From Candidatus Nezhaarchaeota archaeon (GTDB taxonomy: Archaea; Thermoproteota; Methanomethylicia; Nezhaarchaeales; WYZ-LMO8), in assembly GCA_030055465.1 (NCBI GenBank), contig JASFYF010000001.1, forward strand, positions 958,581-1,022,580: 64,000 bases of DNA, read 5' to 3'. Both the position numbers and the translations under genes were made by a program. The notes beneath the pieces were generated by a model. The model made no database searches, was not told the origin of the DNA, and saw only the letters and a program-made list of their open reading frames with translations. Of the stretch, positions 1 to 52,155 are shown piece by piece. Within the stretch, counting starts at the first letter, position 1, and each line of letters opens with the position of its first letter.

Positions 1-495
1 GTGTACTTTGCTCCTTTAGCGCCTATAATACGATGCTGGGTGTACCATACTAGGTGGAGAGGTGTTGACCCAGGCTCCCTCTCGGGGAGATGCCCCCTAG
101 AGGCTAGAGAAAGAGATGTCGAGCTAATTTCGAGGGAACTGCTTGAAACGGAACTATTCGATCCCGCAAGGGTTGGCGTAAGGGGTGCAACGGTGCACGG
201 CCACTCTCTGAGGCTTGACGAGAACGGTTTGATGTTCGATATGCAGAGGAGGTACAAGTACGACCCCAGCAAGGGCGAAGTCGTCTACGTTAAGGATCAG
301 AGCGGCAAGCCATTGGACAAACCGGTGTACGTAGGCAAGCCGTTACCAGAAGAAGAGCTGAAGAAGATGACAACTCAGTTTAGGGTCGACTACATATCAT
401 TGAGGGATGACGCCGAGGTCATGGAGTTCGTGCAGAGACTACACTGGCTTCGAACGCTTGCAGGTGCAGATCCCAACCTAGCAAAGAATGTTTAA
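1..495 (+). CDS. mcrG: methyl-coenzyme M reductase gamma subunit, C-terminal part (5' end outside window)
   Basis: ORF is open at the window edge. The 164 aa contain an McrG-like segment (RGATVHGHSLRLDENGLMFD). It lies directly upstream of mcrA, as in mcr operons. Confidence 0.9.
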   Translation: MYFAPLAPIIRCWVYHTRWRGVDPGSLSGRCPLEARERDVELISRELLETELFDPARVGVRGATVHGHSLRLDENGLMFDMQRRYKYDPSKGEVVYVKDQSGKPLDKPVYVGKPLPEEELKKMTTQFRVDYISLRDDAEVMEFVQRLHWLRTLAGADPNLAKNV

Positions 496-537
496 ATCAT
501 GAAATATGAAAGTCGTTAATTGGAGGTGTGATGTGGT

Positions 538-2205
538 ATGACTACCCAAGAAAGGAAGTTCATGGAGGCGCTGCGCAGGAAGTTTAAGGAGTCTCCTGAA
601 GAGAAATACACTAAGTTTTACGTGTACGGTGGCTGGAAGCAGTCGAAGAGGAAGATCGAGTTCTTCGAGTGGAGCCAGAAAATAGCTAAAGAAAGAGGCA
701 TACCGATGTACAACCCAGACCTCCACCTAGGTGGAGGACCTGGCCAAAGAGTGCTGATGCCCTACCAGATATCGGGAACCGACATATTCGTGGAGCCTGA
801 CGACCTTCACTTCGTCAACAACGCCGCCATGCAGCAGATGTGGCATGATATAAGGAGGACTGTCATAGTTGGGTTGGACGCTGCCCATACTATACTCACC
901 CGAAGGCTAGGCAAAGAGGTTACCCCTGAAACCATAAATCACTACCTAGAGGTCTTAAACCACGCACTGCCCGGTGCTGCCGTAGTTCAAGAACACATGG
1001 TTGAAACTCATCCAGCCATAGTGTCCGACAGCTATGTAAAGGTCTTCACGGGCGATGATGAACTAGCCGACGAGATAGATGACAGGTTCCTCATAGACAT
1101 AAACAAAGAGTTCCCGGCAAACCAAGCAGCCCAGCTTAAACCTGCTATAGGTAAAAGGATCTACCAGGTTCTAAGGATGCCCACAATAATAGCGATGACA
1201 TGCGATGGTGGTACCATGTCACGATGGGCTGCAATGCAGATCTCGATGGCAATGATAAATGCATACAGGCTAATGGCCGGTGAAGCCGCCGTCGGTGAGT
1301 TTGCCTTCGCGGCTAAGCACGCCGAAGTCCTAGAGATGGGCACGCTCATGCCTTGGAGAAGGGTTAGGAGCCCCAACGAGCCTGGAGGAATACCTTTGGG
1401 CTACCTAGCCGACATGTGCCAGGCATCAAGGATTAAGCCTGAGGATCCTGCATGGTGTGCGCTTGAGACCATAAGCATGGCGGCAGTACTCTACGATCAG
1501 TTCTGGTTCGGCAGCTACATGAGTGGTGGTGTAGGCTTTACGCAGTATGCTACCGCCACGTACACCGATAACATATTAGATGACTTCTGCTACTATGGTA
1601 TGGACTACGTGCGGAAGAAATTTGGAGGCTACGCTAAGGCAAAGCCGAGCTGGGACATCGTAAGGGACGTTGCCACCGAGATAACGATGTACGGCCTTGA
1701 AGGATATGAGAGGTGGCCAGCCGCCATGGAGACGCACTTTGGCGGAAGCCAGAGAGCCGCCTGTGTGGCTGCTGGGGCTGGCGTGACCGTGTCAATAGCT
1801 ACGGGGGTAGCCCAAGCGGGGCTAAACGGTTGGTACTTGAGTCAACTGTTGCATAGGGAATCGGCAGGCAGATTAGGCTTCTACGGCTACGACTGTCAAG
1901 ATCAATGCGGCTCCACTAACAGTTTCTCTTGGAGGAGCGATGAAGGTCTACCGTTTGAGCTAAGAGGAGCCAACTACCCGAACTATGCAATGAATGTGGG
2001 GCACCAGTCAGCTTATGCCGGAATAGTCGAAGCAGCTCACGTCGCTAGGGGGGATGCCTGGTGTGTCAACCCCTTAATCAAGGTTGCCTTTGCCGACAAG
2101 AACCTGAAGTTCGACTTTACTAGACCAAGGCTCTGCTTCGCTAAGGGAGCACTAAGAGAGTTCATGCCGGCAGGACTCCTAGATCCAATAATTCCACCTC
2201 GGTAG
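538..2205 (+). CDS. mcrA: methyl-coenzyme M reductase alpha subunit
   Basis: 555 aa with hallmark McrA motifs: [66 protein letters not shown]. Confidence 0.97.
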
Positions 2206-2217
2206 ATCAACCCACCA

Positions 2218-2226
2218 TTATTTTTT
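2218..2226 (+). terminator. oligo-T tract (TTATTTTTT) 13 nt after the mcrA stop; candidate archaeal terminator
   Basis: T6 run at 2221-2226 immediately downstream of the mcrA stop (2203-2205). Archaeal termination commonly uses oligo-T. Confidence 0.4.
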
Positions 2227-2376
2227 ACGTTATGGATTTTGCCGAAACCAGGGCTCTCAGTCTTCAGCCAAATTAGTAAGCCGCGAATGCTTCAAGGCTT
2301 AAATTTTAGCGTTATAGCTTCTTCTCACATCGAGAGCTACCTTGAGGGGATCCCGTGTGTGGGCGGGCTACGGGCT

Positions 2377-4128
2377 TCAGCTGTTCGGCTGGGGGTTGGA
2401 CGTGAAACCTGAGCTTGAAGGTTGTGAGCACTTCGACCCGCTTAATAACTCCTTCTTGTAAAACCTCAAAGACGCCTTTATTGGACCCATGTAAAGCATC
2501 TCTCCGTTATCTATAACGATACCCCTATGGCATACCTCTTCAACGAGGCCGAGCTGGTGATCCACCAATACTGTGGATACGCTTAACCTAGAAACTGCGT
2601 TTTTAAGTGCATTAGCAGCTTTCCTAGCAGTTACTGGATCGAGGTCGCCGAAGGGCTCGTCGAGCAGTAAAATACTTGGGCTTGAAACAAGCGAGAGAGC
2701 CAAGGCGACCCTAACCTGCTCTCCACCCGAAAGTTCATGAGTCATCCTGTAGAGCACATCTTTGGGAAGTCTTAACGCTTCCAACAGCCCTTTAACCTGC
2801 TCTTCCACGAGCTCCTGCGGCATGGCCGGAAAAAGCTCTTTTACAATATCTTGGGTTAGGCCCAATTCTTCAAGCTTTATCTTTGCCTCCTCTGGGGGCA
2901 GCTCTGCTATTCTATGTATAGCATCCAACACCTTGACATCGATCCCCAGCTCTTTCGCCCTTCTTATAGAACCTTGAATCATGTCCCAACTTTTAATCCC
3001 AAGCCTAGAGGCGAAGAGATCTATAACCCTAGACCAGTGTGGCAGCGCGAATTCTTGGTGGAGTATCCCTATTTTCTGGCGGGCCTTCATGCTCTCTACG
3101 CCCAGCCTAGTTATGTCAATCCACCTACGGTCGCACTTGACGTGGACTTCGCCGCTCAGCGGTAGCTCAAGCCCAGCTAATATCCTCATTATAACCGTCT
3201 TACCAGAACCTGAAGGCCCAATTAACGCTGTAACCTCGCCGGTCCTAGCCTTGAAGTTAACCTCCTTGAGGGCAAACACCTCTCCAAGCGGTATGACATT
3301 ATAGCGCCTCGTGACTTTTAGCACTCTCAGAACAGGTTTAGCCCTCTTAGGCATTAATGGTTTGGGTTGGGGATCTTCAAGTCTCGATAGGAAGTTTCTA
3401 AGCAGTGTGCGGGGCCTTCCTTCTCCAACTACCCTGCCCTTGTCTAACCATATGACTCTATCCGCGAGCCTTTCGTGCATCTCAGGCATGTGAGAGGCCA
3501 TCAATATTGTGATGCCGATATCGTTTACCATTCTCAGGGCCTTTACAACCTCAAACCTCGTTTTTGGACAACTCATCGTGGCTGGCTCGTCAAGCAACAG
3601 TACCTCGGGCCTTTTCGCTATCTGCCTTGCGAGAAGGAGCCTCTGCTTCTCCCCTCCGCTGAGCGCTATGGCCCAGATATGTGATCTTTCCCTTAAACCC
3701 ACTAGACCCAGTATCTCCAAGGCCTCTTCAGCTAATTTTTGATATTCACCGGAGTCAGGGCTGGGCAGCGACTCTTCGCCATCGTACCTCCACTTCAAGG
3801 CCCTAATCACGTTGTCCAAAGCTGTCTCCGACCAAAGACCGAAAGACCTTTGAAGGTGTATGGCGGTTTTACGTTTGAGCTTCAAATAATCGTCGATCGA
3901 TGAGTCATGCCTGACAGCAACATCACCCACCTTTATGAAACCGCCATCGATTGTTTCGACGCCCCTGAGAACCCTTATTAAGGTTGTCTTACCTGAACCG
4001 CTTTCGCCTAAAAGGCCTAAGAATTCGCCTTTCTCGACGTCGAAGTTGACGTTGTCTAACGCCTTGAGTTCAAGGCCGCAGCTGGCCCTGTAAATCTTGG
4101 TTACCTCTCTAACCTCTATGAACGTCAT
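2377..4128 (-). CDS. double ABC-type ATPase, component-A2-like paralog (no membrane domain)
   Basis: 583 aa with two ATPase modules. Walker A motifs are GESGSGKT and GPSGSGKT; signatures are LSGGEKQR and LSGGEQVR. The N-terminal half resembles AtwA (LRGVE.., AIHLQRSFGLW..ALDNV) but lacks the CxxC..CxxC insert of the 10296 copy. Confidence 0.75.
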   Translation of the reverse strand: MTFIEVREVTKIYRASCGLELKALDNVNFDVEKGEFLGLLGESGSGKTTLIRVLRGVETIDGGFIKVGDVAVRHDSSIDDYLKLKRKTAIHLQRSFGLWSETALDNVIRALKWRYDGEESLPSPDSGEYQKLAEEALEILGLVGLRERSHIWAIALSGGEKQRLLLARQIAKRPEVLLLDEPATMSCPKTRFEVVKALRMVNDIGITILMASHMPEMHERLADRVIWLDKGRVVGEGRPRTLLRNFLSRLEDPQPKPLMPKRAKPVLRVLKVTRRYNVIPLGEVFALKEVNFKARTGEVTALIGPSGSGKTVIMRILAGLELPLSGEVHVKCDRRWIDITRLGVESMKARQKIGILHQEFALPHWSRVIDLFASRLGIKSWDMIQGSIRRAKELGIDVKVLDAIHRIAELPPEEAKIKLEELGLTQDIVKELFPAMPQELVEEQVKGLLEALRLPKDVLYRMTHELSGGEQVRVALALSLVSSPSILLLDEPFGDLDPVTARKAANALKNAVSRLSVSTVLVDHQLGLVEEVCHRGIVIDNGEMLYMGPIKASLRFYKKELLSGSKCSQPSSSGFTSNPQPNS

Positions 4129-4206
4129 CTCCAGGCCCTCCGGAGATAGTAGTGTGCGCCGTTAAAGCTTTAACCTCCTCGCAGGAAAAATACGTGGAGA
4201 TGTGCA

Positions 4207-4539
4207 ATGTTGAAGGAGCAGATCGAGATATTTCCCTATCGGATACTAAGCGAGAGGACCACTGAAGTACTATTGAAGAAGATATCAAAGTTAGATGGAA
4301 TAGTTGAAGCGATACCACAAGTGCTAAGATATGAAGATGGGGAAACCGTGACGAAAAGGATTATAGTGGCCCTAAACGGCACGGTCCCCACAGATAAAGT
4401 GCTTAACAAGCTAGACGAGATATGCAAGAACATGCTGCCCTTTGGTTACATGCTGAGAACAGGGGTCTTCATAAAGCCGAGGCCCACAGTCTCAGACTAT
4501 TTAAGGGGATACCCACCTCAAGGCGTAGAGGAGGATTGA
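4207..4539 (+). CDS. mcrD: methyl-coenzyme M reductase operon protein D (short form)
   Basis: 110 aa. The N-terminus is IEIFPYRILSERTTEVLLKKISKLDGI and the C-terminus is LPFGY..RTGVFIKPRPTVSDY, as in McrD. It is shorter than my recollection of classical McrD (~140-170 aa). Confidence 0.7.
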   Translation: MLKEQIEIFPYRILSERTTEVLLKKISKLDGIVEAIPQVLRYEDGETVTKRIIVALNGTVPTDKVLNKLDEICKNMLPFGYMLRTGVFIKPRPTVSDYLRGYPPQGVEED

Positions 4540-4796
4540 CCACTTGGCGAACGCCCTTCTTCAAGGGATCTAATCCTTTCTTCAAGCTTCCCAGCTATGT
4601 AGGTCCTTGCCCTCTCAAGCTCCTCTCTCTTCCCTTTAAGCACTAATGTTCGAGGATTCCAGTATATACCTTCATCTGGGGGTGGGACACGCAGCTCCAG
4701 CTCAACGATCTTGAGGTTGAACTTTTCTGCGGCTTCAACCAAAAGCGAGTAGGGTACACCTGCAGGTATCTTCATGTATACTTCTTCCTCGCCCAT
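4518..4796 (-). CDS. hypothetical protein (92 aa), convergent with mcrD and overlapping its 3' end
   Basis: ORF only; no family recognised. It overlaps mcrD by 22 nt tail to tail. Confidence 0.35.
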   Translation of the reverse strand: MGEEEVYMKIPAGVPYSLLVEAAEKFNLKIVELELRVPPPDEGIYWNPRTLVLKGKREELERARTYIAGKLEERIRSLEEGRSPSGQSSSTP

Positions 4797-5053: not shown

Positions 5054-6475
5054 TTGGAGTTGAGCATTTTGCGGCCGAGCGAAGCTAAGATCACGGTCAT
5101 ATCGCCTGAAGTCTACACTTATGGGGCTATGCTTGTGGCTGGGGCGCTTGAGGAGGCTGGTTTTAGAGCTCAACTCATTAAAGCAACACCGACCACCGAG
5201 ATCAGCAGCATCCCTCAAGCCGATGTGTACGCCATTGGGTTGTACTCTCTCCTTCACGTTATGGAGTTTAAGAATTGGATCTCTTCGCTGAAGAGAGCAC
5301 GCAAAAAGCCGATCATAGTGGGAGGGCCGGTTACCGTCGTTCCGGAAGCAGCGTTGGAGAATGTTGATTGTATAGACGCTGTAGTTGTTGGAGAAGGAGA
5401 GGGAACCGTGGTGGACCTAGTTGACTCCCTTATTTCGCGAGGGGATCTGGAAAGCGTTGATGGCATAGCCTTCAGATCTGGAGGCGATATCGTCGCAACG
5501 AATCCGAGGGAGCCGGTAGACTTGGATAATAGGCCATACCCTAAAATTCCGGACGACATATCTTACCAGAGCATTCGAGGCGCACACGTATACATGGAGG
5601 TTTTGAGGGGATGCAAAGGTTCATGTGCTTTCTGCCAAGTTCCAAGGTTCTTTGGAAGGAAGATAAGGAGCAGGCCCTTGGACAAGGTAGTGGAGGAGGC
5701 AAAACTGTTTAGAAGAAAGGGAGCAATCAGAATCGCTATAAGCGGCGGCACAACCTCGTTTTACGGCTGCGGACCTTCTTGGGTGAACGAAGAGGAGATC
5801 CGTGGGCTGCTAAGGTCCCTCAGCGAGGTTGTTGGCTCGAAGAACCTGTCTGCGCCAGACATCAGAGCTGATGCGGCTACCGATGGAATTCTTGAAGCTA
5901 TAGCTAAGTATACCATCGGTTGGATCTTCTTCGGGATAGAGTCGGGGAGCCAGAAGATGCTGGATAAAATGCTTAAGGGCTTAAAGGTAAGCGATGTACT
6001 CGACGCAGTATACAGAGCAAGGAGGCTGGGCGTTAAGCCCGCGGGCTCATTTATTGTTGCATACTCAGGAGAGACCGATGAAGATTTTCAGGAAACCCTA
6101 AGCCTAGTTAGGGACCTTCCACTCATGGACCACTTTGTAAGCATAGCTGAACCCATACTTGGCACACCTCTAGCCGAAGAGGTAGCTGAGATGGATTTAC
6201 GCGAGAACCTTCTATTCGTTGATGACTCCTCCAGCTTTGCAAGGCTTCATGGCCTTTCAGTAGCTGAAATGAGGGCTTACAGGCTCATGGTTGAGGGGTA
6301 CTATGCTAGGCTTCTTTCGACAAGCTTACATGATGAAAGGGCGTTCAAGCTGTTTTTAAACGAAGTTAAGAAGCAGGGAAAGGATATTAAGGCGTGCACC
6401 TTGGAGGTTAAGAGGATTTATTCCATGCATCGACGGAGAAGCCTCAAGACTTCATGGTCAGGCGCTACATCTTGA
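5054..6475 (+). CDS. B12-binding-domain radical SAM enzyme (class B type)
   Basis: 473 aa. An N-terminal Rossmann-like B12-binding-type domain is followed by a CX3CX2C motif (CKGSCAFC, codons 187-194, nt 5612-5635). TTG start. Confidence 0.85.
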   Translation: MELSILRPSEAKITVISPEVYTYGAMLVAGALEEAGFRAQLIKATPTTEISSIPQADVYAIGLYSLLHVMEFKNWISSLKRARKKPIIVGGPVTVVPEAALENVDCIDAVVVGEGEGTVVDLVDSLISRGDLESVDGIAFRSGGDIVATNPREPVDLDNRPYPKIPDDISYQSIRGAHVYMEVLRGCKGSCAFCQVPRFFGRKIRSRPLDKVVEEAKLFRRKGAIRIAISGGTTSFYGCGPSWVNEEEIRGLLRSLSEVVGSKNLSAPDIRADAATDGILEAIAKYTIGWIFFGIESGSQKMLDKMLKGLKVSDVLDAVYRARRLGVKPAGSFIVAYSGETDEDFQETLSLVRDLPLMDHFVSIAEPILGTPLAEEVAEMDLRENLLFVDDSSSFARLHGLSVAEMRAYRLMVEGYYARLLSTSLHDERAFKLFLNEVKKQGKDIKACTLEVKRIYSMHRRRSLKTSWSGATS

Positions 6476-6663: not shown

Positions 6664-6963
6664 TTGGAAAGCGTAGTTAATAGGAGGGGGCTAAGAATAT
6701 CAGTTGGATCGTTGGTTCGGTACTTGAACACCGGGACAACCGGGGTAGTTACATCAATGGAGACCATTGATGGAAGGTGTTGGGCTCTAGTGGAGCCCAT
6801 CAATCTTTGCTATGATGTGGACTACTTAGAACCCCTCGGAGAAGCAGACACAGACATGAAAGATAAGGTTAGTAAGGTTAAAGTGGATGTGGGAAAAACT
6901 CTAAAAGAGGAAGAGGACGTAATAGAGAGATCAACAGAAGTTTCACCTTCAGGTGCGGGTTGA
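6664..6963 (+). CDS. small conserved archaeal protein (tentatively DUF2098-like)
   Basis: 99 aa with the segment GSLVRYLNTGTTGVVTSMETIDGRCWALVEPINLCYDVDYLEP and an acidic tail. TTG start. Its stop overlaps the next gene (TTGA). The family name is from memory only. Confidence 0.5.
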   Translation: MESVVNRRGLRISVGSLVRYLNTGTTGVVTSMETIDGRCWALVEPINLCYDVDYLEPLGEADTDMKDKVSKVKVDVGKTLKEEEDVIERSTEVSPSGAG

Positions 6964-7565
6964 AGGGAAGACGCTTGAACGGGTTCGAAAGCTTGAAGCG
7001 CATAGCGTCCATAGTGGACGTGACAAGGGAGACCGTGGAGGCTCTTCCCCGAGAAGAGGCCCTGAGCAGGCTTAACAGGCTATACGTTAACTTTCCTAAG
7101 GTAGTAGAAGGGATAGCTGAGGCCTTTCTGAATGAAAGGTTTTTAGACGTTTACTTCAGGTTGAAGATAGAGCTGCAGCTGGTCGAAAAAAGTAACCCTC
7201 CCGTTAGACCCGCCTTGGATCCCGAGTTTGCCTTAAGGTTAAGGCTCTACTCGCTTGATGACGCAGAGGTTGGAAGGTTTCTAGGGTATCCCGAGTGCTG
7301 CATACGTAGCTTCGTGGAGGACCTGAGGCTATCTTTCGATGAGGAACATTTGCGGGAGCTATGCGAATTGAGGAGAAGAGGGTTTCGAGTTATCGCGACC
7401 GCGGGCTTTATACCCTGTAGCTTGAACTGCAGTGAGGCGATGAAACAGGGACTTTTGACGCACGTAGAAGACGACTCCAAGATAAGGCTCCTAGATGATG
7501 AACTTAAAAAGAACCTTCCCCACCCACATCCAGCATACCCAAACTTCTTCGAATACCTGTACTGA
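6960..7565 (+). CDS. Cys-motif protein (tentatively DUF483-like)
   Basis: 201 aa with GYPECCIRSF ... GFIPCSLNCSEA. It has a 4-nt overlap with the upstream gene and lies 9 nt before mmp5. Confidence 0.55.
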   Translation: MKGRRLNGFESLKRIASIVDVTRETVEALPREEALSRLNRLYVNFPKVVEGIAEAFLNERFLDVYFRLKIELQLVEKSNPPVRPALDPEFALRLRLYSLDDAEVGRFLGYPECCIRSFVEDLRLSFDEEHLRELCELRRRGFRVIATAGFIPCSLNCSEAMKQGLLTHVEDDSKIRLLDDELKKNLPHPHPAYPNFFEYLY

Positions 7566-7574
7566 AAAACGGGA

Positions 7575-8045
7575 ATGAGAGGGCCAGCTGAAATGCCTAA
7601 AAAGGTAATGATATTTCCGGTTAACAGCCTAATACTATACGACTTGGTTTCGAGGTTTGGACATCAGCCCTTGGCGATGATGTCTAAAATTGCCGAAAAA
7701 GTAAGGGATCCCGAAGTAGACAGCCCACCCATCAACATAACTTATGAGGAACCGAGACATGGATTGAAGTATTGCGCAGTCGAAGTTCCCTCAGGTGTGA
7801 GGGGTAGAATGGCGTTGCTGGGCCCTTTAATCGAGGAGGCCGAAGCCGCCATAATAGTTGACGACCCAGATATAGAGTTCGGTTGTTCCGGCTGTGCGAG
7901 GACCAACGAGCTTGTAATCCAAATGCTGCACAATAAGGGCATTCCTATACTGAGGTTGAAGTATCCTCGAAGCAGTGGTGAAGCCAGAGACTTCGTCAAG
8001 TCGATAGTTGACTTCCTCAAGAGCATTGATGGTGGTGCAAGTTGA
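7575..8045 (+). CDS. methanogenesis marker protein 5
   Basis: 156 aa with FPVNSLILYDLVSRFGHQPLA, DSPPINITYEEPRHGLKYCAVEVPSGVRGRMALLGPLIEEAEAAII and FGCSGCARTNE, matching my recollection of Mmp5. The true start is possibly the ATG at 7593. Confidence 0.7.
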   Translation: MRGPAEMPKKVMIFPVNSLILYDLVSRFGHQPLAMMSKIAEKVRDPEVDSPPINITYEEPRHGLKYCAVEVPSGVRGRMALLGPLIEEAEAAIIVDDPDIEFGCSGCARTNELVIQMLHNKGIPILRLKYPRSSGEARDFVKSIVDFLKSIDGGAS

Positions 8046-9274
8046 CAGTTAAGGTGGCTCAGATCTCTTGCGGGACCGAGTACAGCGGAGTTCAAAAGGA
8101 GATAGCTAGGGCGGCCGAAAAAACTGAGATGGAGCTGGTATTTCCTGAAGTCGATTCCAGCGATATTAAGAGAGCCATGGAGGCGATAGGCCTTTCGCCT
8201 GCAAGTTCCGGGTTAAAGGTGATGCTAGCGAGGGCCCTAGTGATAGTTGAAGGTAGAGCCGACGTCGACGGTGCAATAGTGATGACTTGCTTCAGGTGTG
8301 CTGAAGGAGCCCTCGTCAGGCACGCCATAAGGCGCTTTTTGCATGAGAAAGCACGCATACCAGTGATATCCTATTCTTTTACCGAAAGAACGAAGGCCGA
8401 AAACCTCCTTCTAAGATTTGAAGCGCTGTCAAACATGATAAAACGACGCTTCCTCCTCGCCAGGAAGAAGCATGAAGGCTTAACTATCGGGATAGACTCG
8501 GGCTCAACAATGACGAAGGGCGTAGCCATGAAGGACGGCGAAATACTGGCTTTCCACTGGCTTCCAACAACGGAAGTGGTGGTCTCAGGTTTAAAGGTCT
8601 ATAAAGAACTGCTGTCAAAAGCAAGTATATCGGAGGGAATGGTTGAGGCAGTAGGCGTAACGGGCTACGGTCGATTCATGTTAGGTAAGGAGCTTAATGC
8701 AAACCTTATGCAAGAAGAGATCACGGTGTGCTCGAAGGGTGCCTCCTTCTTGGGTAAAGCGCAAGAGGGCAACGCGACAATAATAGACATAGGCGGCGCC
8801 GACAACAAGGCAATATCAATCTACGACGGCGTTCCTTATAGCTTCACTGTTGGAGGGGTTTGCGCCGGAGCCTCCGGTCGCTTTCTCGAGATAGCTGCTT
8901 CGAGGTTAGGAGTTGACATAGAGACATTCGGCGAAATAGCATTGAAGGGCGACCCACGCAAGATAGCTATGAATGCTTACTGCATAGTCTTTGGAATGCA
9001 CGATCTCGTTACGGCTTTGGCGAGCGGGGCCAGAAAGGAGGACGTTGCAGCGGCAGCTTGCTACAGCGTCGCGGAGCAATTTTTCGAGCAGCAATTTCAA
9101 GAGGTTGAGGCTAAAGAGCCCGTCCTCCAGATAGGAGGAACGTCACTGATAAAGGGCCTCATAAAGGCGTTTGAGGACACCCTGAAGATGAAAATAGTGG
9201 TGCCCCCCTACTCCCAGTACTGCGGTGCTGTTGGTGCAGCGATACTATCCTCGGGGCTTTTGGGGAGATCCTAA
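8042..9274 (+). CDS. methanogenesis marker protein 15 (BadF/BadG/BcrA/BcrD-type ATPase fold)
   Basis: 410 aa. The C-terminal 270 aa has an acetate/sugar-kinase-type ATPase signature (GIDSGSTMTKGVAM). The unique N-terminal domain, size and context fit Mmp15. TTGA overlap with mmp5. Confidence 0.75.
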   Translation: MTVKVAQISCGTEYSGVQKEIARAAEKTEMELVFPEVDSSDIKRAMEAIGLSPASSGLKVMLARALVIVEGRADVDGAIVMTCFRCAEGALVRHAIRRFLHEKARIPVISYSFTERTKAENLLLRFEALSNMIKRRFLLARKKHEGLTIGIDSGSTMTKGVAMKDGEILAFHWLPTTEVVVSGLKVYKELLSKASISEGMVEAVGVTGYGRFMLGKELNANLMQEEITVCSKGASFLGKAQEGNATIIDIGGADNKAISIYDGVPYSFTVGGVCAGASGRFLEIAASRLGVDIETFGEIALKGDPRKIAMNAYCIVFGMHDLVTALASGARKEDVAAAACYSVAEQFFEQQFQEVEAKEPVLQIGGTSLIKGLIKAFEDTLKMKIVVPPYSQYCGAVGAAILSSGLLGRS

Positions 9275-10176
9275 CTCAGCATGGACTCCGGCAAAAGCCG
9301 CACAATGATGTTGTCCTCTAAAACTGACCTCTCCAACGAGGCAACCTCTCCGAGCTTGTGGCCTTCTATCACCACATTGCCTATGATTTTGGCGTAATCA
9401 TCATACTTTAACTGAACCCTGACTCCGTCAATCTTCAAAACCGTTACCTCTCTAGCATCCTCTACTTGTTCCTCGAGCTCCTTCTTCAGTAGAGCTGGTG
9501 GGAACAGGGGAGGATCTTCAGAGAGCTCTTTCCTCCTCCTCTCTAAGAGGACTCCAAGCGACTCAACGAGTTCACTTAGTGCTTTAAGCTCGTTGCTAGA
9601 CTTCAATCTATGAGCTATCCTCCCGAGACCACCTATATATGTGACTTCTGGGGGCAGATCAACCCTCTGCGGTCCACCAACTATCACGACAGGCACTTTA
9701 AGCGCCTTAACCAGGCCGGCCTTCCTTTTTATGCATTCACCCACGTTGCCCATGATGAAGACTGCAGCGTCAACCTCGTTTAGAAACCTGCTTTCGAAAC
9801 TGGTTAGCAAAGCTCTCTTCTGTCCGACCCCTCTTGAAAGGCCAACCATAAAGGTCTTTGATCCATATCTTCTTAGGTATTCATTTATGTCGCATGCAGG
9901 GTGAGGTAGGTGCCTGTAGGACATGCTGGGGGGTACCACAGCTATTTCGGAGCCTATCAGCTTGGCCTCGCTTACTTTAGCTTTAAGTTCACTCGCCAGC
10001 TTCAACAGTGCATCTATGTCGGATCTCGGAATCGCTATGAACATTACAAGGTCTAAACCCATAGTCAATTCTTGCACTACAATGCCTCCCAGGTCGTCTA
10101 CGAGCTCCAACACCTCTTGTTTTCTGTAGGGGCCGCCCACGAACATGTAGTATCCGTAGTCGTACACGGAGTGCAC
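9271..10176 (-). CDS. methanogenesis marker protein 7
   Basis: 301 aa with HLPHPACDINEYLRRYGSKTFMVGLSRGVGQK. Size and context fit Mmp7 as I recall it. It is convergent with mmp15 with a 4-nt overlap. Confidence 0.65.
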   Translation of the reverse strand: MHSVYDYGYYMFVGGPYRKQEVLELVDDLGGIVVQELTMGLDLVMFIAIPRSDIDALLKLASELKAKVSEAKLIGSEIAVVPPSMSYRHLPHPACDINEYLRRYGSKTFMVGLSRGVGQKRALLTSFESRFLNEVDAAVFIMGNVGECIKRKAGLVKALKVPVVIVGGPQRVDLPPEVTYIGGLGRIAHRLKSSNELKALSELVESLGVLLERRRKELSEDPPLFPPALLKKELEEQVEDAREVTVLKIDGVRVQLKYDDYAKIIGNVVIEGHKLGEVASLERSVLEDNIIVRLLPESMLS

Positions 10177-10295
10177 CTTCCACGCACACTTCTAACAGGT
10201 TACCGTTAAATAATTCTACTTCATGATCGCTTATAACCCCATACGCGCATTATTTTCTGTTTTTGACTTCGCATGCCTCATAAAGGTGTCCTGCG

Positions 10296-11885
10296 ATGCT
10301 GTTATTAGAAGTCCACAAGGTGAGTAAGCAGTTTGATGGAATTAAAGTGCTTGATGGGATCTCGTTCAGTTTAAAGCTTGGAGAAAGCCTGGGAATACTT
10401 GGTAAAAGCGGAGCGGGAAAGTCTGTCCTCATACATATGCTTAGGGGAATGAGGGGCTACGAACCAGATGAAGGCAAGGTCATATACCGCGTTGATTATT
10501 GTCCATCATGTCTGTGGGTTGAACCCCCCTCATTTAACGTGGGGCAATGTCCTCATTGTAATGCCATAATGGAGCACAGGACCGTTGACCTATGGGATGA
10601 TGTGGACTCCGAGGTTTCCAAGGCTGTGAAGGCGAGGATCGCTATAATGTTCCAAAGAACCTTCGCCCTTTACGGTAACCTTACACCAATTGAAAACATT
10701 ATGGAGGCCCTTCGAAGGGCTAGGGTAAAGGAAGATGCGGCGCCCAAGTTGGCCATAGAGTACGTTAAGCTCACAAACCTAGTGCATAGGTTGCTTCATC
10801 CAGCCGAAAACCTGAGTGGAGGAGAAAAACAAAGGGTTGTGCTTGCAAGGCAGATAGCTGCGAACCCTATACTCCTCTTAGCTGATGAGCCCACGGGCAC
10901 TCTAGATCCCTACAACGCTAACCTGATAAGCAATTTGCTCGCCCACGAATTCAAGGAGAAGAAGAAGTGCATGATAATAGCCTCCCACATACCTAGCCTC
11001 CTAGAGAGGCTGTGCGACAGAGTGTTGTGGCTTGAAAAGGGAAGGATAGTGATGGATTCTGCCTCGCGAGAAGTCGTCTCGGCATTTCTAGGAGAAGTCA
11101 AGGAATTCGTGCGCGAGGAGGCGTCGGTGGGCCAAGAAGTGCTTAGAGCCATAGATGTGAGCAAGTATTACTATTCTATCGATAGGGGTTTAACGAAGGC
11201 GGTGGACCGAGTGACCTTCGAGGTTAAGGATAAAGAGATATTTGGGATCATTGGTAAAAGCGGTGCTGGAAAAACAACCCTTTCTAGAATTATATGTGGG
11301 CTTACCCAACCGTCCTCAGGTAAGGTTGAGATTAAAATTGGAAATAAATGGTACGACATAACTGCACCGGGCTATGAGGGGAGAGCCATAGCCTTAAGCA
11401 ATATAGGTCTACTGCACCAAGAGTACTCCCTTTTCCCTCACAGAACGGTTCTGGAGAACTTAAGTACCTCCATAGGACTCGAGCTCCCCGAGGAGCTTGC
11501 TAGGATGAAGGCCATATACACCTTAAAGTCCGTGGGAATAGACCCGACCGTAATTGATGGGATCCTAGAAAAGTACCCTGATGAGCTCAGCGAAGGCGAA
11601 AGGCATAGAATAGCGTTGGCCCAAGTCCTAATAAGGGAGCCCAAGATCGTCGTGCTTGACGAGCCCTCGGGAACCATGGATGCTGTGACTAAAGTTGAGG
11701 TTGCAAAATCGATAACGATGTCTAGGTCCTGGCTCGATGAGACGTTTATAATAGTTTCCCACGACATCGACTTCGTGAGGTTTACGTGTGACAGGGTAGC
11801 ACTAATGAAGAATGGGAGAATAGCTGGTTACCTAGATCCCAGAAAGATATCATGGGAAATGTTGGCGGCCGAGCTCAGCGACTAA
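10296..11885 (+). CDS. atwA: methyl-coenzyme M reductase system component A2 (double ABC ATPase)
   Basis: 529 aa with two GKSGAGK(S/T) Walker A motifs plus LSGGEKQR and LSEGERHR. It has LRGMRGYEP, a CPSC..CPHC zinc-ribbon insert (nt 10500-10559) and [13 protein letters not shown], all typical of AtwA. Confidence 0.9.
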
Positions 11886-11932
11886 CAACACTTTGAGGGA
11901 AGACTTTGAGTGCTGTGGGGTGAGGGCCATCG

Positions 11933-12358
11933 TTATACCACCTTTTTGCCGGCTTCTGGTCCAGGTTTAACGGAGTATACTTCTTCAGCCTTTAGGAGCA
12001 CGCAAGCCTTAGGTTTGAGATTTGGCTTTGCTGAGCGAACTCGAGAGGTCACCTCCTCGAAGAGCGGCCCTGAGATATGCAATTCGACTTTGCCCTTGAT
12101 CTGATATCCTTCCCTGGTCTCCGGGTTCCAGAAGGAGAGGGCTGCCTGGGGGTTTTCCTCGATGTTTAGCCTCGTCTTGTTGAAGAAGTTGTCGGCTATT
12201 ATTATCTCTTCATTGTTTAGGGGCCAAGCAAAAACTATGGGGACAGCGTTGGGCTTACCGTTTCTTGAAGCCGTCGCAAAAATGCAGAGCGCCCTAGGGG
12301 CTAGCTCCTCAAGTAGTTTTAAGATGTTTGGGGGAATTTTAACCATGATGTAGCACAC
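11933..12358 (-). CDS. pyridoxamine 5'-phosphate oxidase-like FMN-binding split-barrel protein
   Basis: 141 aa with the pattern NGKPNAVPIVFAWPLNNEEIIIADNFFNKTRLNIEENPQAALSFW. Confidence 0.65.
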   Translation of the reverse strand: MCYIMVKIPPNILKLLEELAPRALCIFATASRNGKPNAVPIVFAWPLNNEEIIIADNFFNKTRLNIEENPQAALSFWNPETREGYQIKGKVELHISGPLFEEVTSRVRSAKPNLKPKACVLLKAEEVYSVKPGPEAGKKVV

Positions 12359-12463
12359 CCTATTCGAATACCCAGAAAGAAGGTAAAAAGGCTTTGCTAA
12401 AATTATCGTTCCTCAGCTCTTCGCAGGGGCAAAAAACTGGCGCTTGCAACCCAAGGTTTTTTC

Positions 12464-12655
12464 CTATTCTCCGGCCAGCGTATCGAGCTCTCTCTCTACA
12501 AGCTTCAAGTAGCTTTCAATAGTGGCAAAGACCCTAACAACCTGTGTCAGCCCAGCCCCTTTAGCCTCTTCAAGGCACTCCGCGACCTTCTGCGATACAT
12601 CGTTGCTTAGGCAGCGAAGCCTTTTCAGGTTCTCCATATTGTCTCCACACCTCAC
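12464..12655 (-). CDS. hypothetical small helical protein
   Basis: 63-aa ORF lying 3 nt downstream of the ligase gene on the same strand. No family recognised. Confidence 0.3.
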   Translation of the reverse strand: MRCGDNMENLKRLRCLSNDVSQKVAECLEEAKGAGLTQVVRVFATIESYLKLVERELDTLAGE

Positions 12656-12658
12656 GTC

Positions 12659-13972
12659 CTAACCCTCCTTTACTACAACCCTTCTAGACTTGCCCTCGAA
12701 TCTCGGCAGGGTTCCAGGCTCAACGACCTCGATCTGAGGCTCAATGAAAAGGCTATTTTTGAACTCGTTTAATATCCTCCTAATTAGGAGGGAGCTCTCC
12801 TCGGATTTTGGAACCTCTATTCTAATGATGAACTCGTAGGGTAGCTTGGTTTTATCGACTACTACCTGGTACTCGATTATTTCTTTGTGCCGGAGTATTA
12901 TCTCCTGAATCGTCGAGGGGAGTATCTTGATCCCCTTGTAGTGTATTACGTCATCAACCCTTGCACGCACTCTAAGGCATCTTGGAAAGGCCATTCTGCC
13001 GCACTCGCAGGGTTCTTCATCCAGCACCGTTATGTCTCCAAGCCTGTACCTCACCAGCGGCGTTGCCTCTTTGACTAGGTGAGTGAAAACCATCTCGCCC
13101 TCTTCTCCGGCCTCCACAGGCTCACCAGTCTTGGGATCTACGATCTCTAGGAGGAAGTGGTCTATCCAGAAGTGAAACCCCTTCTCGTAGATGCATTCCT
13201 GTCCAGCCCCAGGACCGCACAGCTCGCTTGCACCATAAATATCCCTAGATCCACCACCCTTAGCCTTAAGGCCAAGCCACTCCTCGATTCGCTGCCTCAT
13301 TTTCTCAGTCCACATTTCAGCTCCAGGCATTGTAACTCTGAGGTTCAGCTCCTTCTCAACATCGAGGTTCATGTCTTTTACTAAGCTTGCGATGTAGTAT
13401 TGGTAGCTGGGAGTTCCAGTCATGACGGTAACCTTGAAATCTACAAGGCTTTTTATTAAGGCCTGCGTCCTACCAGTACCCCACGGGATTACGGTGGCAC
13501 CAACGAGGAAGGCGCTCTCATGAAGTCCTAAGCCGCCCGTGAATAGACCATAACCGTAGAGGTTCATCACAACATCGCCTGGTTTAACTCCCGCAGTAAC
13601 GTAAGAGCGCGCCGCTAAATTCATCCACGTGTCATAGTCGTGCCTTGTGTAACCGCTTATGATCGGAGTGCCAGTGGTTCCAGAACTCATATGCCAACAC
13701 ACAACCTCCTCCCTGGGCACGCATAGGAAATCCCCTCCAGCAGGGTAGCCATATCCCCTCACATCATCCTTGGTGGTGAACGGGAACTTACCTATGTCCC
13801 TTAAGCTTTTAACATCGGTTGGATGCAACCCAGCCTCCCTGAATTTGCGCCCATAATAGGGGCTTCTTCTATACGTGTACTCAATCATGTACTTTAGACG
13901 CTTCAGCTGCACCTTCTCAATGGTTTTTCTATCGGCGGTTTCCACGTGTGGCTCCCAGTACCTTATCTCCAT
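12659..13972 (-). CDS. phenylacetate-CoA ligase / coenzyme F390 synthetase family adenylate-forming enzyme
   Basis: Family-typical segments FPFTTKDDVR, SSGTTGTP and YGASE. The ORF extends to a GTG at 14062, but the ATG at 13972 (MEIRYWEPH) is the more plausible start. Confidence 0.85.
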   Translation of the reverse strand: MEIRYWEPHVETADRKTIEKVQLKRLKYMIEYTYRRSPYYGRKFREAGLHPTDVKSLRDIGKFPFTTKDDVRGYGYPAGGDFLCVPREEVVCWHMSSGTTGTPIISGYTRHDYDTWMNLAARSYVTAGVKPGDVVMNLYGYGLFTGGLGLHESAFLVGATVIPWGTGRTQALIKSLVDFKVTVMTGTPSYQYYIASLVKDMNLDVEKELNLRVTMPGAEMWTEKMRQRIEEWLGLKAKGGGSRDIYGASELCGPGAGQECIYEKGFHFWIDHFLLEIVDPKTGEPVEAGEEGEMVFTHLVKEATPLVRYRLGDITVLDEEPCECGRMAFPRCLRVRARVDDVIHYKGIKILPSTIQEIILRHKEIIEYQVVVDKTKLPYEFIIRIEVPKSEESSLLIRRILNEFKNSLFIEPQIEVVEPGTLPRFEGKSRRVVVKEG

Positions 13973-14087
13973 TAATCGGCACCCTATCCTCGAGGTAGAG
14001 GATAAACATAAAAGCGTAGTGGATAAAAATTTTTGTCTAAGCATAGCGAAAGACGAAAGCACTGGGACAACCTGCTGCCTAGGAAAG

Positions 14088-14175
14088 GCGGGGGTGGCCG
14101 AGTCAGGTCAAAGGCGGCAGGTTCAGGACCTGCTGGCGCAGGCCTGCGTGGGTTCAAATCCCACCCCCCGCACCA
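14088..14175 (+). tRNA. tRNA-Leu(CAG), class II, no intron, 3' CCA encoded
   Basis: Acceptor GCGGGGG/CCCCCGC. Anticodon arm GCAGG-TTCAGGA-CCTGC. Long variable arm. T arm GTGGG-TTCAAAT-CCCAC. Discriminator A followed by CCA (14173-14175). Confidence 0.9.
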
Positions 14176-14196
14176 TTAGGTTCACTTACCACATCT

Positions 14197-14511
14197 TCAC
14201 TTCAAATCTTGGATGTAAGGATTTAGATCCTTGCACTCGTAGGCGAACTCAAAACTGACTACATCCTCTTCGATCCAGTATCCCGCAGTCGTCCCCGTAA
14301 CTTTGCACTCGAATCTGTCCTCAAATAGCGCTAGGCGAACATAAAATAGTCTAGATGCGGTTCTGATCCCCCTAATGTAGGGGTTACATGTAGGTATAGA
14401 ACGCCTTTCTGCCTTATTGCACTCAAGTTTATGGTCCTCAACCTTTGAGGAGCGTGAACGCGTAATGAGCTTCCATTTATGGTGTACTATGTATGCGAAT
14501 GAAGCGAGCAT
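14197..14511 (-). CDS. hypothetical protein
   Basis: 104-aa ORF next to the tRNA. No family recognised. Confidence 0.3.
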   Translation of the reverse strand: MLASFAYIVHHKWKLITRSRSSKVEDHKLECNKAERRSIPTCNPYIRGIRTASRLFYVRLALFEDRFECKVTGTTAGYWIEEDVVSFEFAYECKDLNPYIQDLK

Positions 14512-14579
14512 TTTAGGGACAAACGTTAAAGTTTACTTTAAAGTGTAAACCTTAAGCTCAAGATGTTATGTGAAGGAAA

Positions 14580-15824
14580 GTGGTGGAGCACTTGAAGCTT
14601 GCTAGTTGCCCTAAAAGGTACTACTACGGTACTCACAGAGCTCGTGAACCCGAGGAGACTTTAAGGCTTATCGAGCCCAAAGCAAAGGAGATAGGCGTAA
14701 CGAGGGTTTCAGATATAACTGGTCTTGATAGGGTAGGCATACCCATTTACTCATGTGTGAGGCCCAGAGCTGCTCAGGGCGCTGTATCCGTGTACTCCGG
14801 TAAGGGGGTAACGAAAACCTTGGCTAAGGTCTCCGCAATCATGGAGGCGATTGAAAGATTCTCGGCTGAAATGTCACCGGACCACGAGCAGAGGATTGTT
14901 AAGGGATCTTATGGTGCCCTTTTAAACAAACATAACGTCGTGGATCCATCTACGCTGATACTACCCATCAATTCTCCCTACTCTTCATCGTCGACGATTA
15001 GGTGGATTAACGGGTTCGACATAATGAATTCCGAGGAGGTTCTTGTACCTGTGAGTGCGGTGTTTCATCCCTATAGCCCTGATGATGACGTGCATTTATT
15101 CAAAACTAACACTAACGGTCTCGCTTCTGGAAACACAATGGAGGAGGCCGTGCTCCATGGTTTAATGGAGGTGGTGGAGCGGGATGCATGGAGTCTAGCG
15201 GAGCTATCTAGAGATGGAGGTGCAATTCTTAAGCCACCTGAAAAGGGGGGGCTCATACGCGAATTGATATCTAAGTTTGAGAAGGCATGCATTAAAGTGA
15301 TACTTCGAGATATAACTTCGGACTTGGGTATACCGGTTGTCGCGGCTGTGTCTGAAGACCTTAAAATAAGGGACCCAGCGCTCCTCACGATAGGCTTTGG
15401 AGCACACTTAGACCCTGAAATAGCGGCTGTAAGGGCATTGCTTGAAGTAGCTCAGAGCAGGCTGGTTCAGATACAGGGGGCTAGGGAAGACGCGTACCGA
15501 GCTAACCTCATGAGGTTAGTCGGTTACGAAAGGGTGAAGCGATTGAATGAACATTGGTTTTCGGAGCTTGAAGCTAAGGAGCTTTCAAGCATTCCAAGAG
15601 CAGCTAAGGAAGACATAGTGGATGATATAATGCTCGTGCTTCAGAGAATTAAGGAAAAGGGAACTGAAAGGGTAATCGTTGTGGACCTTACGCGAGCTGA
15701 GATCTCCATTCCAACGGTTAGAGTTATAGTCCCGGGGCTCGAGGTTTACAGCGTAGATCAGGAGAGAATAGGTTCAAGGGGGAGAGAATGCTTAAAGAAA
15801 AGGAGGGAGAGAGCAAAACGGTGA
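14580..15824 (+). CDS. ycaO: YcaO-domain protein (methanogenesis marker 1; McrA glycine thioamidation)
   Basis: 414 aa with a YcaO-type pattern (TNGLASGNTMEEAVLHGLMEVVERDAW). It is followed by an overlapping tfuA. Confidence 0.9.
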   Translation: MVEHLKLASCPKRYYYGTHRAREPEETLRLIEPKAKEIGVTRVSDITGLDRVGIPIYSCVRPRAAQGAVSVYSGKGVTKTLAKVSAIMEAIERFSAEMSPDHEQRIVKGSYGALLNKHNVVDPSTLILPINSPYSSSSTIRWINGFDIMNSEEVLVPVSAVFHPYSPDDDVHLFKTNTNGLASGNTMEEAVLHGLMEVVERDAWSLAELSRDGGAILKPPEKGGLIRELISKFEKACIKVILRDITSDLGIPVVAAVSEDLKIRDPALLTIGFGAHLDPEIAAVRALLEVAQSRLVQIQGAREDAYRANLMRLVGYERVKRLNEHWFSELEAKELSSIPRAAKEDIVDDIMLVLQRIKEKGTERVIVVDLTRAEISIPTVRVIVPGLEVYSVDQERIGSRGRECLKKRRERAKR

Positions 15825-16471
15825 TTTTCACGGGTCCAAGCCTCAACTCTTTAGAGGCCTCTTCAATATTTCCGGGCGCCATATACAAGCCACCAATAAG
15901 GCGAGGTGACGCGATAAAGGCGTACGAGGAAGGTGCCAAGGTCATAGCTATAATAGATGGAGTTTTCTTTGATGAGGTTGCGGTGGCCCCAAGGGAATTA
16001 CTCTACCTGCTCGACAAAGGAGTCACAGTGGTTGGTGGGGGAAGCATTGGTGCTTTGAGGGCCGCTGAGCTCGACATCTTCGGCATGATAGGAGTAGGCG
16101 AGGTATACGAGATGTACAAGAGAGGAGAGATAGACTCAGACGACGAGGTGGCGCTAATTTTCAACCCCTACACATTTGAACCGCTCTCCGAGCCTCTTGT
16201 GAATATCCGCTTTAACCTAAAGAAGGCAGTTGAGATCGGCTTGCTGGAAGCACGCGTAGCTCAGGGAATTTTGGAGGTAGCTAAGAAAATGCATTACTCC
16301 CAGAGAAGCTATGTTGGAGTTCTAAGAAAAACCGTGGAGGAGGGGCTTATCGAAGAGGAGCTATACCATAGTCTCTCAATGTACTTCGCAAATAACGCGG
16401 TTGACTTAAAGAGGCTGGACGCCATTAAAGTTGTGGAAAAAGTGAAGGGCCTTTGCAGGCCTACATCATAA
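15788..16471 (+). CDS. tfuA: TfuA-like protein
   Basis: VIFTGPSL..PPIRRGD..IIDGVFF..GGGSIGALRAAEL..DDEVAL. An alternative GTG start at 15821 gives a GTGA overlap with the ycaO stop and has GGAGG 14 nt upstream. Confidence 0.85.
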   Translation: MLKEKEGESKTVIFTGPSLNSLEASSIFPGAIYKPPIRRGDAIKAYEEGAKVIAIIDGVFFDEVAVAPRELLYLLDKGVTVVGGGSIGALRAAELDIFGMIGVGEVYEMYKRGEIDSDDEVALIFNPYTFEPLSEPLVNIRFNLKKAVEIGLLEARVAQGILEVAKKMHYSQRSYVGVLRKTVEEGLIEEELYHSLSMYFANNAVDLKRLDAIKVVEKVKGLCRPTS

Positions 16472-52109: not shown

Positions 52110-52155
52110 CTAATTTACTAGTAAATTATAAATACTTGAACGCTGTTTATTTCTG

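Follow-up and report, generated by a model that had tools for sequence, protein, structure and literature searches.

Does the DNA around the structural genes for methyl-coenzyme M reductase (MCR) of a non-euryarchaeal archaeon hold nearly everything needed to make the enzyme active? This question is raised by a 64,000-nucleotide stretch of contig JASFYF010000001.1 (assembly GCA_030055465.1, positions 958,581 to 1,022,580 of the forward strand), hereafter called the window. An initial annotation made from the letters alone had noted MCR structural genes at its start, set in an unusually complete and non-canonically ordered maturation and activation neighborhood. We conclude with high confidence that positions 1-16471 are the downstream three-quarters of a ~22-kb MCR supercluster of Nezhaarchaeota (Methanonezhaarchaeia, Thermoproteota/TACK), which combines a methane-type MCR with nearly all known maturation and activation genes. 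The finding itself is already known: the genome is deposited with most of its genes named, its lineage has been described in print and brought into culture, and none of the gene families is new.

MCR Genes and Their Maturation and Activation Partners

Genes were called mechanically as open reading frames (ORFs) and assigned to families with the curated hidden Markov model (HMM) libraries NCBIfam and Pfam; the larger ORFs across the whole window were annotated with Pfam. Gene identities, synteny, conservation of target residues, and lineage are reported here as observed. The genes that make up the MCR system in positions 1-16471 are listed below.

1-495, plus strand: mcrG, C-terminal 164 codons, partial and running off the window start (TIGR03259, 220 bits, cut-off 172)
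538-2205, plus strand: mcrA, canonical methane-type MCR alpha subunit by its model (TIGR03256, 984 bits, cut-off 768, full length)
2377-4128, minus strand: A2 paralog lacking the zinc motif (AtwA2 / MA_3967 type), a double-ABC ATPase (best match TIGR03269, 298 bits, below the cut-off of 517)
4207-4539, plus strand: mcrD, short form of 110 aa (Pfam MCR_D, 62.5 bits, cut-off 25; NCBIfam, 64 bits, cut-off 100)
5054-6475, plus strand: McrA glutamine C-methyltransferase, B12-dependent radical-SAM enzyme (TIGR04014, 505 bits, cut-off 360)
6664-6963, plus strand: DUF2098 gene, 99 aa (Pfam PF09871, 61 bits)
6960-7565, plus strand: DUF483 gene, 201 aa, Cys/His-rich (Pfam PF04467, 104 bits)
7575-8045, plus strand: mmp5 (TIGR03271, 219 bits, cut-off 140)
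8042-9274, plus strand: mmp15, BcrAD/BadFG-type (activase-like) ATPase (TIGR03286, 616 bits, cut-off 456)
9271-10176, minus strand: mmp7, McrC paralog (TIGR03274, 318 bits, cut-off 349; Pfam MCR_C, 287 bits)
10296-11885, plus strand: atwA, canonical component A2 (TIGR03269, 711 bits, cut-off 517)
14580-15824, plus strand: ycaO, McrA glycine thioamidation enzyme (TIGR03266, 516 bits, cut-off 365)
15788-16471, plus strand: tfuA, YcaO partner in thioamidation (NF033432, 263 bits, cut-off 235)

Every gene named in the initial annotation (mcrG, mcrA, the A2-like ATPase, mcrD, the B12/radical-SAM enzyme, mmp5, mmp15, mmp7, atwA, and ycaO-tfuA) is backed by the HMM searches. The TIGRFAM and Pfam models likewise support its marker-gene assignments, and they identify the two genes that it had left unnamed, of 99 and 201 aa, as DUF2098 and DUF483. 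These two form a tightly packed operon with mmp5 and mmp15. DUF2098 and DUF483, which are translationally coupled, share 4 bases, a gap of 9 bases divides DUF483 from mmp5, and mmp5 and mmp15 again share 4 bases. The mmp15 product also matches the acyl-CoA dehydratase activase domain (TIGR00241, 283 bits). By their coordinates ycaO and tfuA overlap as well; the start codon of ycaO is uncertain, its exact product being absent from the protein collection searched.

McrA and Its Modification Sites

Judged from its sequence, McrA is a canonical methane-type enzyme, as had been proposed from its active-site motifs. It matches the methane-type equivalog model over its full length and is 65-66% identical to Methanothermobacter McrA. 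The residues His257, Arg271, Gln400, Gly445, Asp450, and Cys452 are all conserved (six of six in an alignment to M. marburgensis McrA, whose numbering we use). All of its best matches listed, at least 120, are canonical-length McrA-type proteins.

Divergent alkane-type enzymes do occur in MCR-bearing lineages beyond the classical methanogens, namely in some Bathyarchaeota, Hadesarchaeota, and Archaeoglobi (PMC6783470; PMC9081873), and the cluster could on these grounds encode an alkyl-coenzyme M reductase whose substrates are ethane or longer alkanes. We regard this as extremely improbable in view of the 984 bits scored on TIGR03256, the identity to Methanothermobacter McrA, and the retention of all six canonical modification sites together with the active-site motifs. 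Moreover, McrA groups with the TACK methanogen-type clade, in a tree that held no alkyl-type outgroup, and a cultivated relative is a methanogen; this member of the class makes methane and expresses its MCR highly (bioRxiv 10.1101/2025.06.25.661132).

McrA keeps the targets of both modification systems encoded nearby. For the YcaO-TfuA system, both products exceed their equivalog cut-offs, ycaO and tfuA lie side by side, and Gly445, the residue to be modified, is present. For the glutamine C-methyltransferase, the score lies above the equivalog cut-off, the translation carries CKGSCAFC, a CxxxCxxC radical-SAM motif, and the target Gln400 is present.

Lineage and Contiguity

The window proteins are 100% identical to the GenBank proteins MDI9620171-MDI9620197 of a Candidatus Nezhaarchaeota archaeon metagenome-assembled genome (MAG). 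The identical set includes McrA (MDI9620171.1), the ABC ATPase, McrD (MDI9620173.1, which PGAP also names McrD), a small MJ0093-like ORF (MDI9620174.1), the methyltransferase, DUF483, Mmp7 (MDI9620180.1), and the housekeeping protein aCPSF1. NCBI places the phylum Nezhaarchaeota in Thermoproteati. The nearest McrA proteins are encoded on an ENA contig (93% identity; locus L001) and in Nezhaarchaeales MAGs including WYZ-LMO8 (91-92%; locus L004), the latter having the closest McrA among GTDB species genomes. Identity falls to 75-85% for Methanosuratincola and other Methanomethylicia and to ~65% for classical methanogens. In a neighbor-joining tree of McrA, which took in no alkyl-CoM reductase outgroup, the window protein belongs to the Nezhaarchaeales clade, which is sister to Methanomethylicia and separate from the clades of Euryarchaeota.

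Five tRNAs are found in the window with Rfam, and ARAGORN (option -i) agrees with the earlier observation that three of the five, Ser-CGA, Val-GAC, and Leu-CAA, bear introns. One intronless gene was missing from the initial list:

14088-14175, plus strand: tRNA-Leu(CAG), intronless (tRNA search)

The suggestion of a TACK-type, non-euryarchaeal lineage is borne out by the identity of the proteins, aCPSF1 among them, to a Nezhaarchaeota MAG and by the placement of McrA with Nezhaarchaeales. The accompanying suggestion of MCR-based metabolism outside the classical euryarchaeal methanogens also stands, but it is not news, as MCR in Nezhaarchaeota has been published since 2019. The group was described in that year, and according to Hua et al. 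(PMC6783470) such TACK MAGs have mcr scaffolds that "always harbor" genes for methanogenesis markers.

As the window derives from a MAG, and as published work discusses the horizontal transfer of both mcr and A2, the MCR neighborhood could instead be a recent transfer island or an assembly or binning chimera, with mcr and the TACK-like housekeeping genes coming from different organisms; an integrase-bearing low-GC segment does begin at ~52 kb. This explanation is very unlikely. The mcr genes share one contiguous 64-kb stretch of a 1,024,082-bp contig with aCPSF1, Orc1/Cdc6, and proteasome beta, G+C stays within 0.46-0.52 over the first 52 kb, and the low-GC element lies 35 kb away from the cluster. 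At least five independent assemblies show the same succession of genes, and the relationships of McrA agree with the organismal label.

Gene Order and the Upstream Part of the Supercluster

Besides the genes listed above, four features of the region bear on the comparison with other loci.

4162-4173, no strand: palindrome TTAAAGCTTTAA, at the center of the 78-bp spacer between the A2 paralog and mcrD
4518-4796, minus strand: MJ0093-like gene, 92 aa, conserved in relatives
11933-12358, minus strand: PNPOx-like flavoprotein gene (Pfam PNPOx_N, 67 bits)
12659-14062, minus strand: PaaK / coenzyme F390 synthetase-like adenylating ligase gene (PaaK models ~376 bits, F390 synthetase model 122 bits, all below cut-off)

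None of these three genes was in the initial list. The gene order of the window is matched gene for gene in independent assemblies: L001 from ENA, L004 from WYZ-LMO8, and L090-L093 from JGI. In WYZ-LMO8 (QNVF01000025.1) and in the ENA contig (ERZ1742239 NODE_2788), mcrB-mcrG-mcrA is followed by the A2 paralog (minus strand), mcrD, the MJ0093-like gene (minus strand), and DUF2098-DUF483-mmp5-mmp15, and then by mmp7 (minus strand), atwA, the PNPOx-like gene (minus strand), and the PaaK-like gene (minus strand). These two loci differ from the window in that their accessory proteins are only 47-88% identical to those encoded here, and therefore represent a different species or genus. Both contigs stop before ycaO-tfuA, and the window shows that this pair belongs to the neighborhood.

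The glutamine C-methyltransferase gene is present in the window and in L001, L090, L093, and L095. Unlike the window, WYZ-LMO8 lacks it at the corresponding position (L004 10170-10682; L092 was also compared). Its presence or absence predicts strain-level differences in the 2-methylglutamine modification.

The initial annotation was right that the order is non-canonical. In both L001 and L004, only 3 bases separate mcrB from mcrG, and mcrA comes next, so that neither mcrD nor mcrC stands between mcrB and mcrG as in the classical mcrBDCGA operon, and in the window mcrD lies 2 kb downstream of mcrA, beyond the divergent ATPase gene. It had also remarked that no mcrC was visible. This is true of the 64-kb window, where tblastn with three McrC queries returned only a weak match to the paralog mmp7 and Pfam annotation of the larger ORFs agrees. 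Most likely, however, the absence is an effect of the window edge, because mcrC and mmp3-mmp6-mmp17 lie just upstream of mcrB in WYZ-LMO8: there mcrC sits on the minus strand at the contig start and is transcribed away from mmp3-mmp6-mmp17, and a 177-aa ORF stands between this block and mcrB. In that genome mcrC and mcrB lie on opposite strands, with mcrC ~3.4 kb upstream, and L001 has the same mmp3-mmp6-mmp17 block upstream of mcrB. Synteny would thus place mcrB, mcrC, mmp3, mmp6, and mmp17 upstream of the window, with mcrC expected ~5 kb upstream of position 1. We considered whether mmp7 might itself be the missing mcrC and rejected this, as the Mmp7 model matches it at E = 3.5e-95 and the McrC model at 7.6e-4, and as WYZ-LMO8 has a separate true mcrC.

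Like the classical euryarchaeal mcrBDCGA operon, the supercluster encodes McrB, D, C, G, and A when the upstream genes of the relatives are counted, and the catalytic subunits are 54-66% identical. It differs in that mcrD is paired divergently with an ATPase gene downstream of mcrA, and in that the relative's mcrC lies upstream on the other strand. According to a review, methanogens invariably have a single operon that contains both accessory genes (PMC9081873); these TACK loci depart from this rule. In the Methanosuratincola/Methanomethylicia locus (for example L002 and L007), too, mcrBGA has neither mcrC nor mcrD inside, DUF483 directly follows mcrA, and DUF2098, atwA, tfuA-ycaO, and mmp15 are found within 10 kb. 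In contrast to the window, that neighborhood is without the A2 paralog, mcrD, mmp5, mmp7, and the methyltransferase, and the orientations differ.

Completeness of the Supercluster

We counted 15 accessory families (mcrC, mcrD, mmp3, mmp5, mmp6, mmp7, mmp15, mmp17, atwA, the A2 paralog, DUF2098, DUF483, ycaO, tfuA, and the glutamine methyltransferase) in 84 sequences, namely the whole window and 83 related loci, each taken with at most 10 kb of DNA flanking mcrA. The window holds 11 of the 15 and its syntenic relatives L001 and L004 hold 12 each, against a median of three, which justifies the description of the neighborhood as unusually complete. When the window is combined with the upstream block of L004, all 15 families are represented. 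The Methanomethylicia loci hold six. Completeness is therefore a trait of the lineage, not a peculiarity of this genome.

The next best locus, with 10 of the 15 families within 10 kb of mcrA, is L067 (OW818644.1, a 2.55-Mb chromosome). It is of euryarchaeal type, with a McrA 66% identical to that of the window, and TACK lineages are therefore not the only ones with supercluster-like arrangements.

Activation Machinery and Proposed Working

Of the activation families, A2, Mmp7 (below its NCBIfam cut-off, above that of Pfam), DUF2098, Mmp5, and Mmp15 are encoded in the window. McrC, Mmp3, Mmp6, and Mmp17 fall outside it; they are found upstream of mcrB in relatives (mcrC was read in L004) and are on this basis expected in the present genome.

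True A2 is marked by an N-terminal CxxCx12CxxC zinc motif, and many archaea also have an A2 homolog that does not carry it (bioRxiv 10.64898/2026.03.18.712670). The atwA product has this motif as CPSC-x12-CPHC from residue 69. Both of its nucleotide-binding domains are intact, each with Walker A, signature, and Walker B, and its TIGR03269 score is above the cut-off, all of which identifies it as A2. Methanosarcina acetivorans is reported to transcribe the genes for A2 (MA_3998) and Mmp5, 6, 17, 7, 3, and 15 together, in an "MCR activation operon" whose genes resisted deletion (bioRxiv 10.64898/2026.03.18.712670). The Nezhaarchaeota cluster has the same seven families, of which four are encoded in the window and the other three upstream in relatives, and the canonical A2 has the same zinc motif. 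However, the seven Methanosarcina genes form one operon separate from mcrBDCGA, whereas in Nezhaarchaeota the activation genes are arranged in blocks on both sides of mcrBGA and on both strands, and are interleaved with genes for post-translational modification, DUF2098, DUF483, and the A2 paralog.

A second point of comparison is the M. maripaludis activation complex, solved by cryo-EM, which consists of McrC, Mmp7, Mmp17, Mmp3, A2, and DUF2098, and in which a loop of McrC binds DUF2098, a protein that co-purifies with McrC; the ATP-dependent step that brings F430 to Ni(I) is known only for this complex (PMC12176620). A2, Mmp7, and DUF2098 are encoded in the window, and McrC, Mmp3, and Mmp17 upstream in relatives. 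The window DUF2098 protein matches chain L of PDB 8S7V, 8S7X, and 9H1L (E = 2.6e-6, with only residues 5-68 aligning). By analogy, DUF2098 would be the small subunit of the MCR activation complex, and Mmp7, a McrC paralog, an Fe-S subunit. Whereas the M. maripaludis complex is solved, the Nezhaarchaeota proteins are known here from their genes alone, and DUF2098 is very divergent. Between the window and L001 it is 47% identical, while mmp5, mmp15, and McrA are 87-93% identical; DUF2098 thus appears to evolve much faster than its activation partners.

From work on homologs we infer the biochemical roles of the cluster genes and propose the following working. The structural genes would be ordered mcrB-mcrG-mcrA, with mcrB just off the window. 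The short McrD would act in cofactor loading and assembly. McrA would be modified by YcaO-TfuA, turning Gly445 into thioglycine, and by the B12/radical-SAM enzyme, turning Gln400 into 2-methylglutamine. The activation complex would reduce the nickel of F430 from Ni(II) to Ni(I) in an ATP-dependent manner, with the zinc-motif A2, Mmp7, and DUF2098 from the window, and McrC, Mmp3, and Mmp17 from the block seen upstream in relatives. Mmp5, Mmp15, and Mmp6 are the other members of the activation operon defined in Methanosarcina, and Mmp15, as an activase-type ATPase, may inject low-potential electrons. The zinc-less A2 paralog, the MJ0093-like gene, DUF483, and the PNPOx-like gene are further conserved genes that may contribute.

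By synteny, the ~22-kb locus would comprise the structural genes, McrC, McrD, the full set of seven activation-operon genes, two McrA modification systems, and DUF2098. It would nearly amount to a minimal set of parts, assembled by nature, for producing active MCR in another host. To our knowledge, production of active MCR in a foreign host is an unsolved problem. The A2 paralog, the MJ0093-like gene, DUF483, and the PNPOx-like gene are four candidates for the factors that are still missing; of these, the A2 paralog and the MJ0093-like gene turn up repeatedly in TACK activation clusters, in several lineages.

The A2 Paralog, Short McrD, and MJ0093-Like Genes

The ATPase described earlier as A2-like belongs to a known A2 paralog family, named AtwA2 (PMC3087415) or MA_3967 (bioRxiv 10.64898/2026.03.18.712670). 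Both sets of Walker A, signature, and Walker B are intact. We do not file it as A2 because CxxCx12CxxC is absent from the protein and from all of its 121 listed homologs. Among the 83 mcrA-anchored loci, it adjoins mcrA only in Nezhaarchaeales, and its closest homologs elsewhere sit within activation clusters. In L085 (2086-9695), mmp3-mmp6-mmp17-mmp7-paralog is divergent from mcrD-mcrC-mmp5; in the Bathyarchaeota MAG L087 (7225-9722), mcrD is divergent from paralog-atwA-ycaO-DUF483; and in the Methylarchaceae locus L088 (6649-9683), mmp6-mmp7-paralog is found with atwA, mmp3, mmp17, mmp5, mmp15, and mcrC nearby.

At 110 aa against 129-166 aa, the short McrD is missing an internal segment of ~15 residues and the C-terminal tail in the alignment, and keeps IFPxRxL, LPFGY, and PTVxDY. 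The 92-aa MJ0093-like ORF that follows it on the other strand appears to be a real gene on the strength of its conservation. It was assigned by pairwise comparison with a protein carrying a precomputed match to Pfam PF27275 (MJ0093); such matches exist for the homologs in L085 and L001, the latter weak. Its identity to homologs near mcrD is 78% in L001, 60% in L004, 47.5% in L087, and 36% in L085. These homologs adjoin mcrD in Nezhaarchaeales and L087, and lie ~1.7 kb from mcrD in the same cluster in L085.

The zinc-less A2 paralog, a short mcrD (110-120 aa), and the MJ0093-like gene recur together in the activation clusters of several TACK lineages, and across these clusters mcrD and the A2 paralog, or its operon, are usually divergent. 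In the window, the palindrome TTAAAGCTTTAA is perfect and lies at the exact center of the spacer, 34 nt from the start codons of both the A2 paralog and mcrD. It is kept at the equivalent position in L001, and in L004 with one change. It is probably a shared bidirectional promoter element of the archaeal TATA/BRE type.

DUF483 and the PNPOx-Like and PaaK-Like Genes

In an alignment of DUF483 homologs, C113, C114, C157, and H130 are invariant, and C153, H188, and H190 nearly so. The AlphaFold2 model has a mean pLDDT of 92.5; searches of the PDB gave no match by sequence and no fold match of the model (best E = 1.9). A literature search on DUF483, MJ0093, and MJ0094 found nothing relevant for DUF483. 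The gene directly follows mcrA in the Methanomethylicia loci that carry it, 12 in one comparison of loci, and this was seen again in a second comparison.

We rejected the idea that DUF483 is linked to MCR everywhere, as a metagenome scan anchored on DUF483 found the linkage only in Nezhaarchaeia- and Methanomethylicia-type loci, to which the Bathyarchaeota locus L087, identified separately, is to be added. In L087 (11411-13208), ycaO is followed by DUF483 and there is no tfuA within 8 kb; Methanocaldococcus also has DUF483. This is a weak hint that DUF483 could be linked to thioamidation. A replacement of TfuA by DUF483 is likewise a weak lead, as the window and Methanomethylicia each carry the two genes.

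The PNPOx-like and PaaK-like genes are both syntenic in L001 and L004. Further PNPOx genes occur in the activation clusters of L087 (15313-15726) and L088 (6155-6577), so that this flavoprotein recurs in or beside the MCR activation clusters of three TACK lineages. The PaaK-like ligase probably stands outside the MCR system.

Functional Cluster or Partial Coincidence

Several observations weigh against reading the whole locus as one MCR supercluster. The mmp7 and mcrD products fall below their NCBIfam cut-offs, though above the Pfam ones, and whether methane is formed or oxidized cannot be told from sequence alone. The full supercluster is pieced together from relatives with 92-93% McrA identity and only 47-88% identity in the accessory genes. 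The tie to MCR of the A2 paralog, DUF483, the MJ0093-like gene, the PNPOx-like gene, and the PaaK-like ligase is so far one of gene context. DUF483 does not stand beside MCR genes outside Nezhaarchaeia, Methanomethylicia, and the one Bathyarchaeota MAG (L087), and neither does the A2 paralog in Methanobacteriaceae.

These points leave room for clustering that is only partly functional, in which mcrGA, mcrD, the methyltransferase, DUF2098, mmp5, mmp15, mmp7, atwA, and ycaO-tfuA belong together and the five genes tied by context are bystanders. We consider this a real possibility, though not the probable one. Many DUF483 homologs have no MCR gene within 8 kb and in the DUF483-anchored scan neighbor PheRS-beta, or RibD_C, TatD, and CobN, the A2 paralog of Methanobacteriaceae keeps company with oxidative-stress genes, those for rubredoxin, ferritin, peroxiredoxin, and superoxide dismutase, and the PaaK-like ligase has no known link to MCR. 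Against this, the A2 paralog lies inside the activation clusters of four separate lineages (the window with L001 and L004, L085, L087, and L088), and the MJ0093-like gene keeps its place next to or near mcrD in Nezhaarchaeales, L087, and L085. DUF483, for its part, overlaps the stop codon of DUF2098 within the same four-gene operon, besides directly following mcrA in those Methanomethylicia loci that carry it.

Within the supercluster reading that we prefer, a more speculative proposal, which we think rather unlikely to hold, is that in TACK methanogens the A2 paralog, short McrD, and MJ0093-like protein would form a divergently encoded module for a second ATP-driven step of MCR assembly or activation, for example the opening of apo-MCR for F430 loading, and that DUF483 would be a further metal-binding MCR maturation factor.

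Other Features of the Window

Two further regions of the window lie outside the MCR neighborhood. At 20813-22668 lie two neighboring genes that overlap, each for a MinD/ParA-type P-loop ATPase into which a 4Fe-4S ferredoxin domain is inserted. A UPF0179 gene follows; the pair has no obvious link to MCR.

The second region, 51996-64000, is probably an integrated element. Here the intron-bearing tRNA-Leu(CAA) is followed by a 182-aa ORF and a tyrosine integrase gene (52686-53642), and G+C falls from ~0.50 to 0.41-0.45 up to the window end. No att-like repeat of tRNA-Leu(CAA) was found downstream of the integrase within the window. A 39-nt repeat is present in two copies (59666-59704 and 61251-61289, 82% identical), with an inner palindrome, TATAGCAATATTTAAATATTGCTATA, in the first copy that is degraded in the second. 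One copy lies upstream of the gene for an aldehyde:ferredoxin oxidoreductase, the other precedes a series of small ORFs, and the repeat may be a shared operator.

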